A stretch of 64,000 nucleotides of DNA from Candidatus Latescibacterota bacterium (GTDB lineage: Bacteria; Latescibacterota; UBA2968), in the NCBI GenBank assembly GCA_965242535.1, contig OZ251458.1, positions 926,399 through 990,398 of the forward strand. The letters are read 5' to 3'. This document shows, piece by piece, positions 18,306 to 62,474 of this stretch. Numbering within the stretch: the stretch's first letter is position 1; the number at the start of each line of letters is the position of its first letter. The notes beneath the pieces are model-generated. The model had not been told where the DNA came from, ran no database searches, and worked only from the letters and a program-made list of their open reading frames with translations. The position numbers and the translations under genes were made by a program.

Positions 18306-19643
18306 TTAGCCTTCCTCTGTACCTGCTAGCTGAACCATGAGGTCGCGCCGGTCGTGGATGATAGATGGAGAATGGGTAGCTACGAGGAAATCGAGGTCAG
18401 CCAACTTGGATATCTTAGCAATATCCTCGAGAAACTTTCTCTGCCATGTGACGTGAAGAGACAACTCTGGTTCATCTATGAGAATGAGGGAACCCGGCGA
18501 TGCCTTGAACAAAAGTCCGTATGTCAGGACAATTTCATGTTGCTCACCGGAGGACAGTGCTTTTGGAGGCACAATGGATCCATCGTGATCTGACTTAAAC
18601 ACGAAGCCCCTATCTTTATCTATCTCGAATTTCTTATATGAGAAACGCGAGTTGATAATCTCTTTGAACAGTTCTACTCGGCGGAGAAGTGGGTCGAATA
18701 CATCCAGTTTCTTTTGAACGTCATCGAGGTAGGCCCATAAAATTTTTCTTTCATTTTCTTCTAAACCTTCAGGGGTTAGAGGAACGGGAGCCTCAGCAAC
18801 AAGGAGACCTGCTTCCATCAAGCGATCTCTATATTTTGATTGACGGTTATATTCTTCCTGTATGCTCTCTTCTGTCGCTGTCTGAGGAAGCGCGTATGCC
18901 AAAAGCCGTTGGGGAAAAGAGCTATCTAAAGATGATCCAAGCTCACCGGATTCCCTTTGGCATTCCTTTATTCTCGATACCATATCCTCCGAGTATTGCT
19001 CTACCGTCACTCGTTGGACGGGAACTTCTCTCCTATATCGAGGCACAAATTCGCCATTTTTGTGCCTTGTAAAGAGTCTCTGAGTTTCAACAACGACAAT
19101 ATTGATTTGGTTTAATATGCTGTCCATTGCATCCGAAACTGAGGGGATGGATTCTCGAATATCAGAGGGTAGAAAGTGTCCGTAACGAAAAACGACCTCA
19201 TCAAAAGCCATGATCTCGTCCGTGATTTCATCATACCACTCAGATGGACCAATGCGTTCAATATGATCGATCATGCGTTCTAAGAGGCCGGCGGAATATC
19301 TTTTTAGCCTCTCCGGCACTCTCGAGGATACCGTATGCTCAATCGTTTTGTTTCCGAAACGATAGGTTAATTTTAGCTTTGCGGAATCCTTTGCCCCTTC
19401 TTTTTGGATTTGTCTAACTGTCAAGCTGCCTTTCGGATCGAAACGGACCACAATGCGGTCAAAGGGCGTATCGAACAATGAGTGAAACCGCCGTTTGAAG
19501 AGGTCATAGACGAGACGGAGAACCGTCGTCTTGCCGACGCCATTCCGGCCGTGGATGATAGTAATACGGTCGTTTTCCTTCAAGGGTATCTCGTGATCAA
19601 AATACCCGAACAGAGAGTGAATATCGATCTGTCTTATTTTCAT
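18306..19643 (-). CDS. ABC/SMC-type ATPase component (AriA-like; AAA_15/AAA_21-like)
   Basis: Walker A GRNGVGKTT, ABC signature LSSGEQ, Walker B LILIDEPE and H-loop ATHSP. ATG at 19643 with a GGAG ribosome-binding site. The 164-codon upstream extension in the ORF track is read-through antisense to the TPR gene. Confidence 0.75.
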   Translation of the reverse strand: MKIRQIDIHSLFGYFDHEIPLKENDRITIIHGRNGVGKTTVLRLVYDLFKRRFHSLFDTPFDRIVVRFDPKGSLTVRQIQKEGAKDSAKLKLTYRFGNKTIEHTVSSRVPERLKRYSAGLLERMIDHIERIGPSEWYDEITDEIMAFDEVVFRYGHFLPSDIRESIPSVSDAMDSILNQINIVVVETQRLFTRHKNGEFVPRYRREVPVQRVTVEQYSEDMVSRIKECQRESGELGSSLDSSFPQRLLAYALPQTATEESIQEEYNRQSKYRDRLMEAGLLVAEAPVPLTPEGLEENERKILWAYLDDVQKKLDVFDPLLRRVELFKEIINSRFSYKKFEIDKDRGFVFKSDHDGSIVPPKALSSGEQHEIVLTYGLLFKASPGSLILIDEPELSLHVTWQRKFLEDIAKISKLADLDFLVATHSPSIIHDRRDLMVQLAGTEEG

Positions 19644-19671
19644 GTCCGTCTCCAATTGTCTATTTGCACTT

Positions 19672-19712
19672 TTAGAAAACCCCGCACTCATTGGCACGGG
19701 GTTTTGGGATGT
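19672..19712. terminator. Hairpin and T-run identical to 17388-17428 (right copy of the direct repeat)
   Basis: Same 41-bp sequence. Lies 26 nt downstream of the TPR gene stop. Confidence 0.7.
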
Positions 19713-19737
19713 TGGGGTTTGTGGAGCGAGGTGATCG

Positions 19738-20925
19738 CTATTCCTGATTTTGGCTTTGCAGAGCCTCGTACATCTGGTAGGCTTCGGTGGCTTTTTTGAC
19801 GCATTCTGCGGCGACATCGCCTTCCGAGACTTCGGATTTGCGCGCATAAACGCGAGACAGCGCGGCCCAAGCGCGGGCATTGGCGGGTTCGAGTTCGGTG
19901 ACTTGGGCAAAGGCTTCGATGGCTTTGTCAAAGGATTCCACTTTGTCCGCGAGCAAGCCGAGCTGGTACCACGAATCGACATCGTCGGGATTTGCTTCCA
20001 CGCTCTTTTGGAAGAGGTCGAGGGCTTGATCGCCCTTGCCGAGTTGCCGATAGGCAATGGCGAGGTTGAACATCGCGTCCATGTTATCGGGTTGGAGCTC
20101 GACCACTTTATCGAGGATTTCAGCGGCTTTTTCAAAGTTTTCGGCTTGCAAAAAGATCTGCGCCGCGATGTTCAAAATTTTGGGATCATCGCCCGCTATC
20201 GCCAAGGCTTTTTCCGCGGATTCCGACGCGCCTTCTCTGTCGCCTAATTGGTATTGGGCTATCGCCATGTTCTGCAAAATAAGGATATCTTCGGGATCGA
20301 TCTCGTGGCCTTTTTGGAACATTTCCAGGGCTTCGTCAACCCGGCCCGCATTCATCAGCGCGCCGCCGACATTGAAAAAGGACTGGGCTTTCTTCGGATT
20401 GAGTTCAAGGGCTTTTTTGTACGTCTCGATGCCCTCGTCTGCATTGCCCGAGTTGAGGTGCGTGATCGCCAAGCCTTCATACGCGTCGGCTTCTTTGGGG
20501 TTGATCGTGATGGCGAGGTTGAATTGCTCGATGGCAAACTCGGATTTTTGGGAGTTCATCCCCTTGACGCCCAGGTTGTAATACCGCGTCCAAAGCTCTT
20601 TGCGGTCCGTCTCGACTTTCTTTTTCCATTTCTTGTCCGTGGCCAGCTCGTAGTGTTCGTTCATTTCCTCGAACAATTCCTTTTTCGAGTAGAGCCAGCC
20701 CAAGTAGTACTGGACTTCCGAATCGTCGGGGCGACCTTCTGCCGCGATGATGTATTGTTCCAACGCCTTGTCGTATTGACGCTGATTGATGTACAATTTG
20801 CCCGACCGCTTGGCAACAGAGGCCTGCCCTTTGGTCACTTTGGCTTCCGCAGTCGCGGTGAGCGATGGGGGCGCAACAAAAGCTAGCGTCAGGGCAACGA
20901 TGAGTCCACACTTGCGAAATGTCAT
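19738..20925 (-). CDS. Secreted TPR-repeat protein
   Basis: Signal peptide MTFRKCGLIVALTLAFVAPPSLTATAEA, then repeated TPR-like A/Y/L/G heptad patterns throughout. Confidence 0.75.
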   Translation of the reverse strand: MTFRKCGLIVALTLAFVAPPSLTATAEAKVTKGQASVAKRSGKLYINQRQYDKALEQYIIAAEGRPDDSEVQYYLGWLYSKKELFEEMNEHYELATDKKWKKKVETDRKELWTRYYNLGVKGMNSQKSEFAIEQFNLAITINPKEADAYEGLAITHLNSGNADEGIETYKKALELNPKKAQSFFNVGGALMNAGRVDEALEMFQKGHEIDPEDILILQNMAIAQYQLGDREGASESAEKALAIAGDDPKILNIAAQIFLQAENFEKAAEILDKVVELQPDNMDAMFNLAIAYRQLGKGDQALDLFQKSVEANPDDVDSWYQLGLLADKVESFDKAIEAFAQVTELEPANARAWAALSRVYARKSEVSEGDVAAECVKKATEAYQMYEALQSQNQE

Positions 20926-23906: not shown

Positions 23907-24343
23907 CCCATTTGTACCAACTCATTCATTATCGGGGTCGCTTTGCTGTTCCATCGTCCTTCAGAAAAGCCATCCCAACTCGTGCCATCCCAAAAGTTCA
24001 TCGACGAAAGCCATCGGGCACAGCGCGCAAGTCCGTCTCGCAACCCACATCCATTTTGCAACCCACTTTGCAGGCTGTCTCATGTCGTGGAATTACAAAA
24101 GCGATTTGCGCTGTGCCTAGCCCCTCGGCGCATGAGAGCGGCATTTTTGAACTGCTCGGGCAGTTGTACCCCGCTCGCCTACTTTTTTTTGCTGTTGAAA
24201 AAAAGTAGGTCGCCGAAGGCATCGAAGGCAACCAACGATGCTTTTAGGACCAAACGTTTTAGAAAAGTGAGCCACGTCGGTGCGGATTGGTGCGGATCAA
24301 CATTTAGTTTAATTTACGGAGTATTTAGTTGGTACAAATGGTT
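23907..24343 (+). repeat. MITE-like repeat copy B (terminal inverted repeats CCATTTGTACCAACT... / ...AGTTGGTACAAATGG)
   Basis: Inverted termini read directly. The internal modules match copy A. Confidence 0.8.
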
Positions 24344-27960: not shown

Positions 27961-28045
27961 GACGGGCACGGGGGCCTGTCCCTACGATTGCGATTGCTTC
28001 TCACCTCTCACCTCTCCCGTCTCCCGTCTCCCGTCTCCCGTCTTG
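27961..28045. repeat. REP-like hairpin (reverse orientation) plus (GGGAGAC)n tail and CTTGTATCTT
   Basis: Reverse complement of the canonical hairpin-GAAGATACAAG-(GGGAGAC)n composite. Confidence 0.85.
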
Positions 28046-34732: not shown

Positions 34733-34781
34733 AAAAAAAAAGAAGCCCAGGTTCACGATGAACTCGGGCTTTCATTTTTTG
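34733..34781. terminator. Bidirectional rho-independent terminator candidate (A-run, GC hairpin, T-run)
   Basis: AAAAAAAAAGAAGCCCAGGTTCACGATGAACTCGGGCTTTCATTTTTT lies between convergent rimO and the small coiled-coil gene. Confidence 0.6.
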
Positions 34782-34795
34782 AACGGATACAGTCC

Positions 34796-35278
34796 TTAAC
34801 CACCGGTCGCTTGCTTTGCCGATTGCTGATCGCCGACCGTTTGCGGACTTGGGGCTTGGACTTGAGGACTAGGGCCGTTTCTCAATCGTCTGTACGTGTC
34901 ATAGCCTAGGGTAATGGCAATGGGCGCGACGAGAGCCGAAATAATGCCCATAAACCAATAAAACATGGTGTTCATCCGATTGTGCAACTGTTCAAATTGG
35001 GCGTCCATCTTTTTATTTTGCTCGTCGAATTTGGCGTCCATCTTTTTATTCAGCGCGTCTTGTCTGTCCTCAACGCGATCAAGTCTGTTTTCAACGCGAT
35101 CGAGCCGTTTGTCCATTTGTTCAACGATGCCAATCAACTTGCCAAGTTCGGTTTGGTTTTGAGACATCCTCGTATCTCGTGCCGGTTTTTGACTGGCCTG
35201 CTGTTGGGCGTCAATCGGTGCGGCGAGCATCCAGGTCAATGAAATGCAAACGATCCATAAGATGTTTTTCATGTTCAT
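34796..35278 (-). CDS. Small secreted/membrane-anchored coiled-coil protein (paralogue 1; XhlA/DUF1640-like architecture)
   Basis: Signal peptide, RLDRVENRLDRVEDRQD heptads, C-terminal TM FYWFMGIISALVAPIAITLGY. Paralogues at 49574 and 60322. Confidence 0.6.
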   Translation of the reverse strand: MNMKNILWIVCISLTWMLAAPIDAQQQASQKPARDTRMSQNQTELGKLIGIVEQMDKRLDRVENRLDRVEDRQDALNKKMDAKFDEQNKKMDAQFEQLHNRMNTMFYWFMGIISALVAPIAITLGYDTYRRLRNGPSPQVQAPSPQTVGDQQSAKQATGG

Positions 35279-35719
35279 GTCCTTTCACGAGTGACATGTG
35301 AATTTGCATCTTACAAAGATACGCCCTTTTTGACGGATGTCAACTTTCGTCCGGCCCCCAAAACTACCGGTCGCTTGCTTTGCCGATTGCTGATCGCCAA
35401 ATCTCTGCCGCGGTCAACCGCCTGTACGTGCCCCGATCATCCCCTACCTGCCCTTGCCTTTCCTCCTCGCTCTCTGCCCTCTGCCCTCCTCTCGCCTTTA
35501 ATCCGCCTTTCGCTTTTTCTTTGTCGGCCCTGTGAGCTACGCCTCTGTCTGCTCTGTGCTTTGCCCTCTGCCCCACTCTCGTTTTTAATCCGCCTTTAAT
35601 CCCCTAATCCGTGTAATCCGCGATTCAGACAGGGATTGTAAAATGGGAGAATGGTAACTATATTTGTCGCAACGGGAAAAACAGCAATCGGCGTTCAGCC
35701 CACTTCTCCGGAGAAACCC

Positions 35720-49294: not shown

Positions 49295-49489
49295 GCATCA
49301 CCTCAGTTGATCGATGGGAGTTGCGAAACGCCCCAAAATAAAAATTATCATCCGGATAGACAAGGGCTTTGCGATGGGCGGTTCTGCTTGACAGCGGTCA
49401 TGGAGAGGATGATATTCAGTCGTCAGACCACCAGGCACCATCCATTGTAAATCCTGCTGTGATGATGCCCGGCACCATCCATTGTCCAT

Positions 49490-49516
49490 TGTAGGGACAG
49501 GCCCCCGTGCCTGTCC
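49490..49516. repeat. REP-like hairpin GTAGGGACAGGCCCCCGTGCCTGTCC with a flanking CCATTGT duplication
   Basis: Canonical family sequence, about 60 nt upstream of small coiled-coil gene 2. Confidence 0.85.
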
Positions 49517-49573
49517 TCATACCCAGTCGTCAGTGGTCTAATCTCCACAACCCCTTATCCAAAAGGAGACCCC

Positions 49574-49825
49574 ATGCCCATTCCCATCATTGACCCGTCC
49601 CAAGCCACGACCAACGAGAGGTTGGCAAGGTTTGATGCGATTGTTGAACAACTGGCACAAACGCTTGTGCGCGTTGAAGATCGCCTTACGAATCTTGAAG
49701 ACCGCATCGCAAGGGTTGAAGACCACATGAATAAATCGTTCCGTTGGCTCGTCGGCATCCTCTTCACGATCCTGATTGCCATTTTGGGCGCGACAGTGAC
49801 CATTTTGTTGAACATGCCCAAGTGA
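49574..49825 (+). CDS. Small coiled-coil protein with C-terminal TM anchor (paralogue 2)
   Basis: RLTNLEDRIARVEDHMNKSFRWLVGILFTILIAILG. AAAGGAGAC ribosome-binding site. Confidence 0.6.
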   Translation: MPIPIIDPSQATTNERLARFDAIVEQLAQTLVRVEDRLTNLEDRIARVEDHMNKSFRWLVGILFTILIAILGATVTILLNMPK

Positions 49826-52298: not shown

Positions 52299-52299
52299 G

Positions 52300-52640
52300 G
52301 GAGGCGGGGAGACGGGAGAGGGGAGACGGGAGAGGCGAAAGGCGAAAGGCGAAAGGCGAAAGGCAAAAGGCGAAAGGCGAGAGGCGAGAGGCGAGAGGCG
52401 AGAGAAGCAATCGCAATCGTAGGGACAGGCCCCCGTGCCTGTCCGAAGATACAAGATGGGAGACGGGAGTTTAGCCACAAAAGGCACAAAAGGCACAAAA
52501 GGCACAAAAGGCACAAGCGAGGTACAACTGGCACCGCCAGTTCAAAGGCACGAGCGGGGTACAACTGACGACAGCCGTTCATCGTAGGGACAGGCCCCCG
52601 TGCCTGTCCGAAGATACAAAGGGAGACGGGAGACGGGTAG
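52300..52640. repeat. Repeat-filled convergent intergenic region: (GGGAGAC)n, (GGCGARA)x11, REP hairpin, (GGCACAAAA)x4, second REP hairpin plus GAAGATACAAAGGGAGACGGGAGACGGG
   Basis: Read directly. The hairpins are at 52419-52445 and 52584-52609. Confidence 0.9.
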
Positions 52641-58134: not shown

Positions 58135-58166
58135 GCCAACTCCATCGTCCGTAGGGATAGGCCCTG

Positions 58167-58490
58167 TGCCATCTGTACCAACATCGGGATCGGTTTGCTG
58201 TTCCCTCGTCCTTCAGAGAATCCATCGCCAACCGTGCCCTCGCAAAAGTCCATCAATGAAAGCCATCGCGCACAGCGCGCAAGTCCGTCTCGCAACGCAC
58301 TTCTCTTTTGCAACCCACCTTGCAGGCCGACTCATGTCGTGCGATTACAAAAGCGCTTTGCGCTGTGCCTAGCCCCTCGGCGCATGAGAGCGGCATTTTT
58401 TGCTTACTTTTTGTTGCTGTTGACAAAAAGTAAGTCGCCGAAGGCATCGAAGGCAACCCACGATGCTGTAGGACCAAACTTTTTGGATCA
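58167..58490 (+). repeat. MITE-like repeat copy D (3'-truncated at the tamA stop)
   Basis: Begins with CCATCTGTACCAAC and contains the hairpin module CTTACTTTTTGTTGCTGTTGACAAAAAGTAAG. Confidence 0.75.
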
Positions 58491-60239: not shown

Positions 60240-60321
60240 TCTGTCACTTATGAAAAAACCCCACAAAATCGATTCATTCTGTGGGGTTAAAATGGCTTGG
60301 CGGGCGTGAGGACTCTGCGAA

Positions 60322-60663
60322 TCACCAAAGTTTGTCGATAATTTTCAAAAGAATCCCGGTCCCTAAAATCGCACCGATCAGCCATTTGAAGTCTTTGTAC
60401 ATCCGGTTGGACAAATCCTTGTGGTTTTGCCTCATCTCGCTAAGCGCGGCATCCACGCGGTTGGACAGATCTTTGTTGTCCTGTCTCAATTCGCTGAGCG
60501 TATTGTCCACGCGAGAAAGCAAAATCTCAAACTTGTCGTCCATCCGACCCGCCAAGTTGCGCTGATCTTGTTCCACATTGGAAACGCGCTGACCGATCTG
60601 TTTGGTCTCGCCTTCCAATTTGGCTTGTCGCTCCGCGAGTTTGGAAACTTCTCCTGCCATCAT
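60322..60663 (-). CDS. Small coiled-coil protein with C-terminal TM anchor (paralogue 3)
   Basis: Heptad-rich body and a KDFKWLIGAILGTGILLKII tail. ATG ATG at 60663 follows an AAGGAG ribosome-binding site. The tracked GTG start 9 codons upstream is less likely. Confidence 0.6.
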   Translation of the reverse strand: MMAGEVSKLAERQAKLEGETKQIGQRVSNVEQDQRNLAGRMDDKFEILLSRVDNTLSELRQDNKDLSNRVDAALSEMRQNHKDLSNRMYKDFKWLIGAILGTGILLKIIDKLW

Positions 60664-60789
60664 CCGCTCCTTTCCGTTGTCGTTGAACACGTCTCTCGTT
60701 TCGCAAATCTATCCCATTTTGCAGGCAATGGCAAGGGGAAAACGAGCGGGGATCCGCCCCTGCGTTACGGGATTACTGCGCGTGCAGGC

Positions 60790-60910
60790 GTAGCCAACGC
60801 ATCGAAGGCAACCCACGATGCTTTAGGGCCAAATGCTTTAGACAAGCGAGCAACTCAGGTACTGATTTGTACGTATCAAAATTGAGAATAACTTAATTTA
60901 CAGAGTAATC
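60790..60910 (+). repeat. MITE-like repeat copy E (3' fragment including the terminal inverted repeat TTAATTTACAGAGTA)
   Basis: Matches 15040-15127 of copy A. Confidence 0.75.
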
Positions 60911-61198
60911 AATATCGCAATAAAAAATGTCCGATGCAACGCGGGGTTGTGGCGAAATGCCATGGCCCCGTTTTTTTGTGAAAATATTTCTGTCATTTTG
61001 AAACCTTTAAGGGCAAGGCGTGTATCTAAGACCTAATAGAGAACAAAAAAGCAGGAGAGCAAAGGATGGACGATGCCCAACCCTGAAACTTTGTAAAAGC
61101 ACGATGCGTTTAAGGAATGTCCGAACTCCGAATTTGCAACGGGTTCAATCGGGACGAGGCATAATCCCCTGTCAGCACCCGCTTTGGGAGGGAATCTC

Positions 61199-62182
61199 AT
61201 GACCGCAAAATTGGACATGCCGACGACAATTCGCGCCGAGCCGAGTGGAGGTTTTCGCCGTGCTGTTGGACATGACCGCGAGCGCGACAAAAAAACCATG
61301 TCCTCGCATGATGCTGTCGGAGAACGGAAAGAACGGGTGGAAGATATGAAAACAGAAGCGCGGACCGGGCGCGATACTTCGATTCAGAGCTACCTGAAGG
61401 AGCTCCGCAAGTATCCGCCATTGAGTCGAGAAGAAGAACAAAAGACGCTGTGCCAGGCCAAGAAGGGCGATCGCGCGGCGACAGACAAAATCATCACGTC
61501 AAACTTGCGTTTTGTCGTCAGCGTCGCACTCGAGTACCAGGGACGAGGCGTACCCCTCGCCGATTTGATCGCCGAGGGCAATATCGGACTGATGGAAGCC
61601 CTCAAGCGATTCGATGAAAAGCGCGGGTTTAAGTTCATCAGCTATGCGGTTTGGTGGATTCGGCAGGGCATTCTCAACGCGCTCAAGCGCACATCGACCG
61701 TGGCGATGCCCGCAAATCGCCAGGAAGATATGGACCGCATGGCGCGACGCTGGGGGCAGATGAGCCAAGAGTTGGGCCGCGTGCCCACGCTGGACGAAGT
61801 CGCCAGCGATATGCAGATCAGCCCCGAGCGCGCAGAGCGAGCCTTGCGTTGCGTGCGTCCCGATCTGTCGCTCTCGATGCCCATAGATGCGGAAGGCGAG
61901 CAGTCGCTCATGGATTTGATCGAGGCCGATGTCGAGTGCCCCGATCAGTTGGTTATGGCACGCGATCAGTCCGAGTGGGTGTCCCGATCTCTCGCCGCGC
62001 TCGACCCGCGCGAAGCCGATGTCATTCGCGTCTATTTTGGCCTCGATGGCCATGAGCGCGAGAACCTCAGCGAAATCGGTCGCTCTTTGGGCCTGACCCG
62101 AGAACGCATTCGCCAGATCCGCAACCGCGCGCTGTGCAAACTCCAGCGATATTTTCGGCGCGAAATGCCGGAGGAGAGGTGA
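61199..62182 (+). CDS. Sigma-70 family RNA polymerase sigma factor (group 2/3-like)
   Basis: Region 2 (NLRFVVSVALEYQGRGVPLADLIAEGNIGLMEALKRFD...YAVWWIRQ) and region 4 HTH (LSEIGRSLGLTRERIRQIRNRAL). GGGAGGGAA ribosome-binding site. Confidence 0.8.
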   Translation: MTAKLDMPTTIRAEPSGGFRRAVGHDRERDKKTMSSHDAVGERKERVEDMKTEARTGRDTSIQSYLKELRKYPPLSREEEQKTLCQAKKGDRAATDKIITSNLRFVVSVALEYQGRGVPLADLIAEGNIGLMEALKRFDEKRGFKFISYAVWWIRQGILNALKRTSTVAMPANRQEDMDRMARRWGQMSQELGRVPTLDEVASDMQISPERAERALRCVRPDLSLSMPIDAEGEQSLMDLIEADVECPDQLVMARDQSEWVSRSLAALDPREADVIRVYFGLDGHERENLSEIGRSLGLTRERIRQIRNRALCKLQRYFRREMPEER

Positions 62183-62189
62183 GACGGGA

Positions 62190-62474
62190 GACGGGAGACG
62201 GGAGAGGGAAGAAGCCATCGCAATCGTAGGGACAGGCCCCCGTGCCTGTCCGAAGATACAAAGACGGGAGATGCCATCGCAATCGTAGGGACAGGCCCCT
62301 GTGCCTGTCCGAAGATACAAGAGGCGAGAGGTGGGAGACGGGAGAGGGAAGAGATGTGTAGATCGGATTGCGACGCGAAGCACAACGTCAGTAAAGGGAA
62401 AAACGATGGCGGATTGATCCGTGACCCGTTCCATTATTTGTAGGGACAGGCCCCCGTGCCTGTCCTTGCCCCAA
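62190..62474. repeat. Cluster of three REP-like hairpins (62226-62251, 62285-62310, 62449-62474) with GAAGATACAAG tails and (GGGAGAC)n
   Basis: Canonical family sequence repeated downstream of the sigma factor gene. Confidence 0.9.

Follow-up and report, generated by a model that had tools for sequence, protein, structure and literature searches.

Three short open reading frames, here called genes A, B and C, lie in a 64,000-nt stretch of a Candidatus Latescibacterota bacterium (contig OZ251458.1, positions 926,399–990,398; 'the window' below), and they raise the question of what kind of protein they encode, whether they belong to one family, and whether the repeats beside them have moved or multiplied them. 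The sequence-only reading had described them as three paralogous small coiled-coil proteins with a C-terminal membrane anchor and an XhlA/DUF1640-like layout, each next to a REP hairpin or MITE copy, and possibly membrane-active, holin-like or stress-related. All three frames were found at the positions given there (34796–35278, 49574–49825 and 60322–60663); their coordinates and those of associated features are collected in the table.

Table. Positions of the three genes and of associated features. Positions are those of the window, except for the last two lines, which refer to loci (L numbers) in related Latescibacterota.
Feature	Position	Strand	Remarks
Gene A, open reading frame	34796–35278	−	frame present
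Gene A, 158 aa	34796–35272	−	conserved; P0002 100% identical at 158 aa
Gene A, residues 1–22, signal-peptide-like hydrophobic segment MKNILWIVCISLTWMLAAPIDA, then QQQ	35207–35272	−	hydropathy; kept in orthologues
Gene A, predicted TM helix, residues 102–124, then DTYRRLR	34901–34969	−	hydropathy; invariant in orthologues
Gene A, promoter-like site: TTGACA, 16-nt spacer, TATCTT	35316–35343	−	consensus match only
Gene A, intrinsic terminator hairpin 3' of gene	34743–34771	−	−19.4 kcal/mol, z = −3.1, U-run
37-nt copy of the gene A 3' end	35364–35400	−	36/37 identical; decayed, frame-shifted 'TYRRL' just upstream
Gene B, 83 aa, predicted tail-anchored	49574–49825	+	P0039 100% identical
Gene B, predicted TM helix, residues 58–80; four residues after	49745–49813	+	hydropathy
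Gene B, promoter-like site: TTGACA, 17-nt spacer, GATATT	49388–49416	+	kept in orthologous locus L001
REP-type hairpin at gene B	49485–49519	+	between B promoter and RBS, 55 nt before start codon
Gene C, open reading frame	60322–60663	−	frame present
Gene C, 112 aa, predicted tail-anchored	60322–60660	−	best XhlA match of the three
Gene C, membrane anchor WLIGAILGTGILL, then KIIDKLW	60346–60384	−	invariant in orthologues
Gene C, promoter-like site: TTGCCA, 17-nt spacer, TAGATT	60706–60734	−	kept in L007–L009
Intrinsic terminator between gene C and Omp85/TamA-like gene	60257–60288	−	hairpin plus U-run
Partial MITE-like copy	60796–60911		130–250 nt 5' of C, beyond C promoter
MITE-like element, 330–530 nt	14596–15126, 23913–24262, 58165–58487		three long copies
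REP hairpin copies	12974, 27959, 31627, 49492, 52420, 52585, 62227, 62286, 62441		window positions
Heptanucleotide arrays	52299–52404, 62173–62209, 11328–11355, 28013–28043		examples
Arrays of B-type genes	L003 4001–5485; L002 3718–4267; L004 4001–4472		2–5 copies
Pair of C-type genes	L007 3614–4285		two copies

Orthologues were recovered from metagenome assemblies at E ≤ 1e-3 (38 clusters for A, 99 for B and 11 for C) with identities of 55–100% and from many Latescibacterota assemblies, and relatives were located by a genome scan on the Latescibacterota chromosomes OY282377.1 and OZ242010.1. Orthologue lengths varied always in frame, by whole units of 7 or 11 residues, and dN/dS in the B family (eleven genes, pooled) was 0.10 and 0.09 at the conserved N- and C-terminal codons. 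Because of the conserved orthologues, the in-frame length differences and the low ratio at the B ends (about 0.09–0.10), A, B and C are, judged by conservation, real coding genes, as had been supposed. The start of gene A is probably at 35272, since an AAAGGA ribosome-binding site lies 8 nt 5' of this ATG and P0002 has the same length; with the other possible ATG, at 35278, the protein would have 160 aa. For gene C, position 60660 was favoured over the alternative starts at 60663 and 60690 on the basis of the upstream alignment with orthologous loci and of ribosome-binding-site spacing. Promoter-like sites of their own precede all three genes at a plausible distance, and terminators of their own follow A and C; the terminator of A is flanked by an A-run and a T-run and is bidirectional, common to the convergent rimO. 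The conserved promoter of gene C, CCCCTTGCCATTGCCTGCAAAAT(G/A)GGATA(G/C)ATTTG, may also be read as the Bacteroidota/FCB-type pattern (−33 TTG, −7 TAnnTTTG). A heat-shock promoter 5' of C was considered and found unsupported, the conserved site being equally readable as sigma-70 or FCB-type.

In the coiled-coil regions of all three proteins the hydrophobic periodicity was 3.5–3.6 residues, and the coil leads into F-x-W-(L/F)-(V/I/M)-G, after which a hydrophobic helix follows. The W(L/F)(V/I)G-type junction before the helix was thereby seen in A, B and C as described earlier, and the heptad R(L/V)(E/D)xRLxxVEDR in A and B but not in C. A single architecture had been claimed; it holds for coil, junction and helix, but A adds a signal peptide and a tail, and the TM helix is C-terminal in B and C only, being followed in A by 36 residues that are basic and Pro/Gln-rich. 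Gene B encodes, in order, the invariant N-terminal peptide MPIPIIDPSQATTNERL, heptads, an SFRWLVG junction and a TM helix that is near-invariant among 23 family members; because this one helix occupies residues 58–80 of 83 and is preceded by four Lys/Arg, B is predicted to be tail-anchored with its N-terminus inside. Gene C encodes a coiled coil, a DFKWLIG junction and a short hydrophobic anchor (residues 94–106 of 113, of borderline hydropathy). B and C fall into the tail-anchored class (no signal peptide, TM within about 30 residues of the C-terminus) and have the XhlA layout, being small and combining an N-terminal coil with one C-terminal TM; A does not belong to that class and deviates from that layout. 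Its order is signal peptide, heptad/hendecad coiled coil, FYWFMG junction, TM helix and basic tail. The N-terminal hydrophobic segment ends in PIDA before the QQQ, which is typical, by hydropathy, of a cleaved signal peptide, and cleavage is considered probable. On the strength of the signal peptide, the TM helix, the Pro/Gln-rich tail and DTYRRLR, whose positive charges after the helix mark the inside, A is predicted to be a type I protein with its coiled coil facing the periplasm. The AF2 monomer of A was a single continuous helix over residues 38–131, at low confidence (pLDDT 55.6). Conservation in each of the groups was highest at the N-terminal motif and at the junction plus TM, and lowest in the middle of the coil.

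XhlA (PF10779) was the only family matched consistently by all three orthologue sets (13 of 19 A-type, 7 of 23 B-type and 11 of 11 C-type sequences, with best member E-values of 1.8e-8, 6.1e-6 and 5.7e-8) and was matched by 16 of 29 broader relatives; some orthologues carry precomputed PF10779 matches. The proposed XhlA-like layout is accordingly the best and only consistent family match, but the window proteins themselves scored 15.1 (A), 16.3 (B) and 32.4–32.8 bits (C), all below the gathering cut-off of 34.7. The other half of the proposal, DUF1640 (PF07798), fell away: it was absent among the matches listed for A, B and C at E ≤ 10 (for A and C, the best 25 families), and a single one of the 29 broader relatives matched it (8e-5). 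DUF1664 (PF07889), also named as a candidate, was absent among the matches listed for the window proteins and was matched by 5 of 19 A orthologues (best 3.7e-4) amid dozens of generic coiled-coil matches, that is, as weak coiled-coil noise. PHROG 'hemolysin' and 'holin' families were matched weakly, together with several function-unannotated families, and a PDB sequence search returned only generic coiled coils, mostly trimeric viral ones. A, B and C are new, ordinary members of a known XhlA-like small-protein family, and the XhlA-like reading holds at the level of the superfamily.

Similar layouts are found in other small membrane proteins. E. coli YgiM (TIGR04211), ElaB, YqjD and YgaM (DUF883), which are encoded on the chromosome and associated with stress, sit in the inner membrane by a C-terminal anchor that begins with Trp and have a helical region in the cytoplasm. 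The coil-plus-anchor part of TIGR04211 weakly matched C and seven others of a 19-sequence set, but there is no SH3 domain and the score was 23 bits against a cut-off of 65; DUF883 was absent among the matches listed, and the likeness to the E. coli proteins is one of architecture only. The ssr2422 family thylakoid membrane protein (NF053525, about 77 aa) consists, as B does, of a coiled coil and a C-terminal anchor; B aligned to nearly the whole model and 6 of 19 family members matched it, with B at 19.7 and C at 14.8 bits, both below the cut-off of 38. That family is cyanobacterial, whereas B comes from Latescibacterota, and in the literature the sole use of the name ssr2422 was unrelated to the NF053525 family.

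The only characterised relatives are Bacillus subtilis PBSX XhlA and SPP1 gp24.1, which are lysis proteins (PMC6316719, PMC6834076); both are harmless alone and lethal with their XhlB or gp26 partner, and XhlA and holin together permeabilise the membrane (PMC6316719). A literature search for non-phage roles of XhlA gave nothing relevant. As in the window proteins, the coil leads into one C-terminal TM and a Trp marks the junction, and the gp24.1 sequence taken from the phage record has the same coil–TM layout, but against a broad window-family profile gp24.1 reached only 39% hhalign probability. XhlA comes from Firmicutes phages and sits in a lysis cassette, whereas the window genes are on a didermic Latescibacterota chromosome and have neither XhlB nor an endolysin gene as a neighbour; gene A is further unlike XhlA in its signal peptide and cytoplasmic tail.

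Gene A lies between rimO (convergent) and folA–thyA (divergent; DHFR and ThyA). Gene B is flanked by genes for a Nudix hydrolase and a SelA-like protein. Gene C immediately precedes an Omp85/TamA-like gene and tamB, and a sigma-70-family gene (61184–62182) runs divergently from it. In relatives, one or two tandem C copies are located between hsp20–clpB and the same omp85 gene, an order that gives a weak hint of stress; clpB was looked for in the 64-kb window and not found. A-type genes had a different neighbourhood in each genome examined. TnpB/Cas12f-like (IS605-family OrfB) genes were observed a few kb from A-type genes in two related genomes (L010 1429–2757 and L012 6337–7572), a proximity that may be coincidental.

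Head-to-tail arrays of B-type genes were found in relatives: L003 carries five copies, L002 and L004 a pair each. The copies are separated by spacers of 37–58 nt, each with a ribosome-binding site and with no repeat elements between copies. DNA identity of the array ends was 93–100% within an array and 74–92% between arrays, and members differ in their central region by whole heptads, so that the proteins are 67–102 aa long; near-identical ends combined with heptad differences suggest recent duplication or concerted evolution. At least four further B-type sequences (P0057, P0079, P0103 and the fragment P0137) probably belong to the source genome.

No small two-TM ORF, endolysin or phage gene was found within 3 kb of A, B or C, and no relatives of B and C were found in IMG/VR (searched with the B and C family alignments) or, by tblastn, in cultured phage genomes. 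A, B and C are outside any lysis cassette, in a housekeeping neighbourhood. A membrane-permeabilising role is still conceivable because PBSX XhlA and SPP1 gp24.1 are lysis proteins, and in its fullest form this alternative would make A, B and C domesticated XhlA-type holin accessories which, with an unlinked holin-like partner, permeabilise the inner membrane when triggered; autolysis, membrane-vesicle or cargo release, or abortive infection could be the purpose. The rank of XhlA as best family match, the matched PHROG 'holin' and 'hemolysin' families and the coil and single C-terminal TM shared with PBSX XhlA and gp24.1 (PMC6316719) agree with it, as do the TM segments, whose strong conservation would be expected if the TM does more than anchor the protein. 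Its chances are modest all the same, given the absence of holin, endolysin and phage genes nearby and of close relatives of B and C in the viral collections, the scores below the PF10779 threshold and the weak gp24.1 match, a predicted periplasmic orientation of A that does not fit an N-in XhlA-type layout, and purifying selection on arrays with as many as five copies, which would be unusual for a lysis factor.

We regard it as probable instead that A, B and C are old, diverged XhlA-like chromosomal paralogues, transcribed separately, with a likely role at the envelope or membrane, and that the repeats are not causal. The housekeeping context, the missing holin partner and the upkeep of several copies by purifying selection argue for a cellular envelope or membrane role, as scaffold or in stress, over phage lysis, and such a role appears most likely. 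B and C would be anchored in the inner membrane by their tails, the coiled coil lying in the cytoplasm; A would have acquired a signal peptide as well as a basic tail in the cytoplasm, and its coil would therefore face the periplasm. All three probably self-associate, using the coil and the strongly conserved TM helix; function would reside in the conserved ends (N-terminal peptide, junction and TM), and the central coil would serve as a stalk whose length is free to change by whole heptad or hendecad units. Topology, cleavage of the signal peptide and oligomerisation are predictions.

A bolder extension, whose chances are rather small, is that the genes represent a large, unrecognised cellular branch of the XhlA superfamily (2,000 or more clusters at 50% identity, almost none with a name), in which length-diversified stalk arrays would form a set of membrane-proximal spacers or 'rulers' and the A type would have been re-targeted to the periplasm; the stalk would hold the conserved end-pieces apart, its length being deliberately diversified by gain and loss of heptads. 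The XhlA layout is so far known experimentally only from Firmicutes phage lysis cassettes. If the findings on A, B and C are confirmed, uncultured phyla would also have this layout as a widespread family on their chromosomes, each genome having several paralogues and one variant being of predicted inverted topology; the labels 'hemolysin' and 'holin' for such genes would then call for caution, and the family would provide a small, tractable system for bacterial tail-anchored coiled-coil proteins. As it stands, the analysis improves the annotation of three hypothetical genes and opens no new question.

Whether the three are related at all was judged on formal alignments. Pairwise BLASTP gave 26–29% identity (single-comparison E-values from 3e-8 to 5e-5), and local alignments exceeded 2000 shuffles in which signal, coil, TM and tail segments were kept separate (z = 10.0, 6.8 and 5.6). 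Comparison of the orthologue profiles with hhalign gave probabilities of 96.5%, 95.9% and 89.7%, which are inflated by the shallowness of the profiles (Neff about 1.5). In the joint alignment two motifs were in register: one at the coil start (ERLAxLEGIVEQ-like; TELGKLIGIVEQ, ERLARFDAIVEQ and ERQAKLEGETKQ) and one at the junction leading into the TM ((N/D)(R/H)M..F.W(L/F).G; HNRMNTMFYWFMG, EDHMNKSFRWLVG and SNRMYKDFKWLIG). The joint profile, searched against 1.84 billion cluster representatives, gave 2188 matches at E ≤ 1e-3 and 64 at E ≤ 1e-10; 139 of the 150 best are ≤200 aa long. The junction W and G were invariant and the F at least 90% conserved among 26 sampled relatives and the three window proteins. 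P0153, which is outside the A orthologue set, has an A-like signal peptide and tail; the distant relatives P0186, P0275, P0158 and P0164 are on contigs of ≤1.5 kb. By these alignments A, B and C are distant paralogues whose similarity goes beyond composition, and the paralogy proposed for them was borne out. That three unrelated small proteins should each have arrived independently at a generic coiled coil and membrane helix is improbable: low pairwise identity, the compositional bias of coil and TM with many weak matches to unrelated coiled-coil families and PDB coiled coils, and the differing predicted topology of A would suit such convergence, but it would have to account for z-scores above architecture-preserving shuffles, for a coil start and an F.W..G junction that align in register, for more than 2000 small proteins, intermediates included, that have both motifs, and for the recovery of a signal-peptide form from outside the A set.

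The last part of the question concerns the repeats. The REP-type hairpin GTAGGGACAGGCCCC(C/T)GTGCCTGTCC was present in nine copies at about seven sites in the window, often with GAAGATACAA after it and (GGGAGAC / GAGAGGC)n heptanucleotide arrays alongside, and these elements look like one composite intergenic repeat; most of the sites are not beside members of the A/B/C family. The orthologous B locus L001 has kept promoter and gene but has no REP. The MITE-like fragment 5' of gene C marks a rearrangement breakpoint, since it sits where relatives have the end of clpB; the hsp20–clpB synteny seen 5' of C in L007–L009 is broken in the window exactly at this fragment, and the same relatives conserve the C promoter and gene without a MITE. 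The hairpin 3' of gene A is unique, being in no repeat family reported for the window. The statement that each gene sits next to a REP or MITE copy was therefore only loosely right: B has a REP and C a partial MITE nearby, but the hairpin of A is a terminator. Because the REP is absent at L001, the MITE fragment lies beyond the C promoter at a breakpoint and the A hairpin is a terminator, the link to repeats is incidental: the REP and MITE copies belong to the ordinary repeats between genes and are not causally tied to A, B and C, and duplication in relatives is by local tandem arrays and not repeat-driven. The 37-nt copy of the gene A 3' end (35364–35400, extending up to about 35440) suggests a lost tandem A-type paralogue of which it would be the remnant. 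A mobile family spread or duplicated by the adjoining REP/MITE elements, as the sequence-only reading had proposed, is highly improbable, for although a REP precedes the B start codon, a MITE fragment lies 5' of C, a duplicated-copy remnant adjoins A and A-type neighbourhoods vary between genomes (twice near TnpB genes), the nine REP copies are mostly away from family members, the orthologous B and C loci do without REP and MITE, the A hairpin is no repeat and the relatives' copies are tandem arrays without repeats between them.

Several minor features of the window were also recorded. Of the long MITE-like copies, one is located between the TamA-like and TamB genes and that at 14596–15126 carries an extra insert of about 150 nt; an Rfam search of the window repeats, including the MITE-like element, gave no match. 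Adjoining the remnant upstream of gene A, two copies of a 39-nt CT-rich repeat were found at 35472–35597. A tRNA gene is present at 9783–9866 (Rfam, 45 bits), and about 100 nt 3' of it (9967–10039) there is a perfect 21-nt tandem repeat of 3.5 copies (ATGAAGGCGAGTAATCCGAGC), with a related copy at 12856–12894. Two identical 41-nt terminator-like hairpins (TTAGAAAACCCCGCACTCATTGGCACGGGGTTTTGGGATGT), 2.3 kb apart at 17388–17428 and 19672–19712, flank a 609-aa ORF at 18306–20135.
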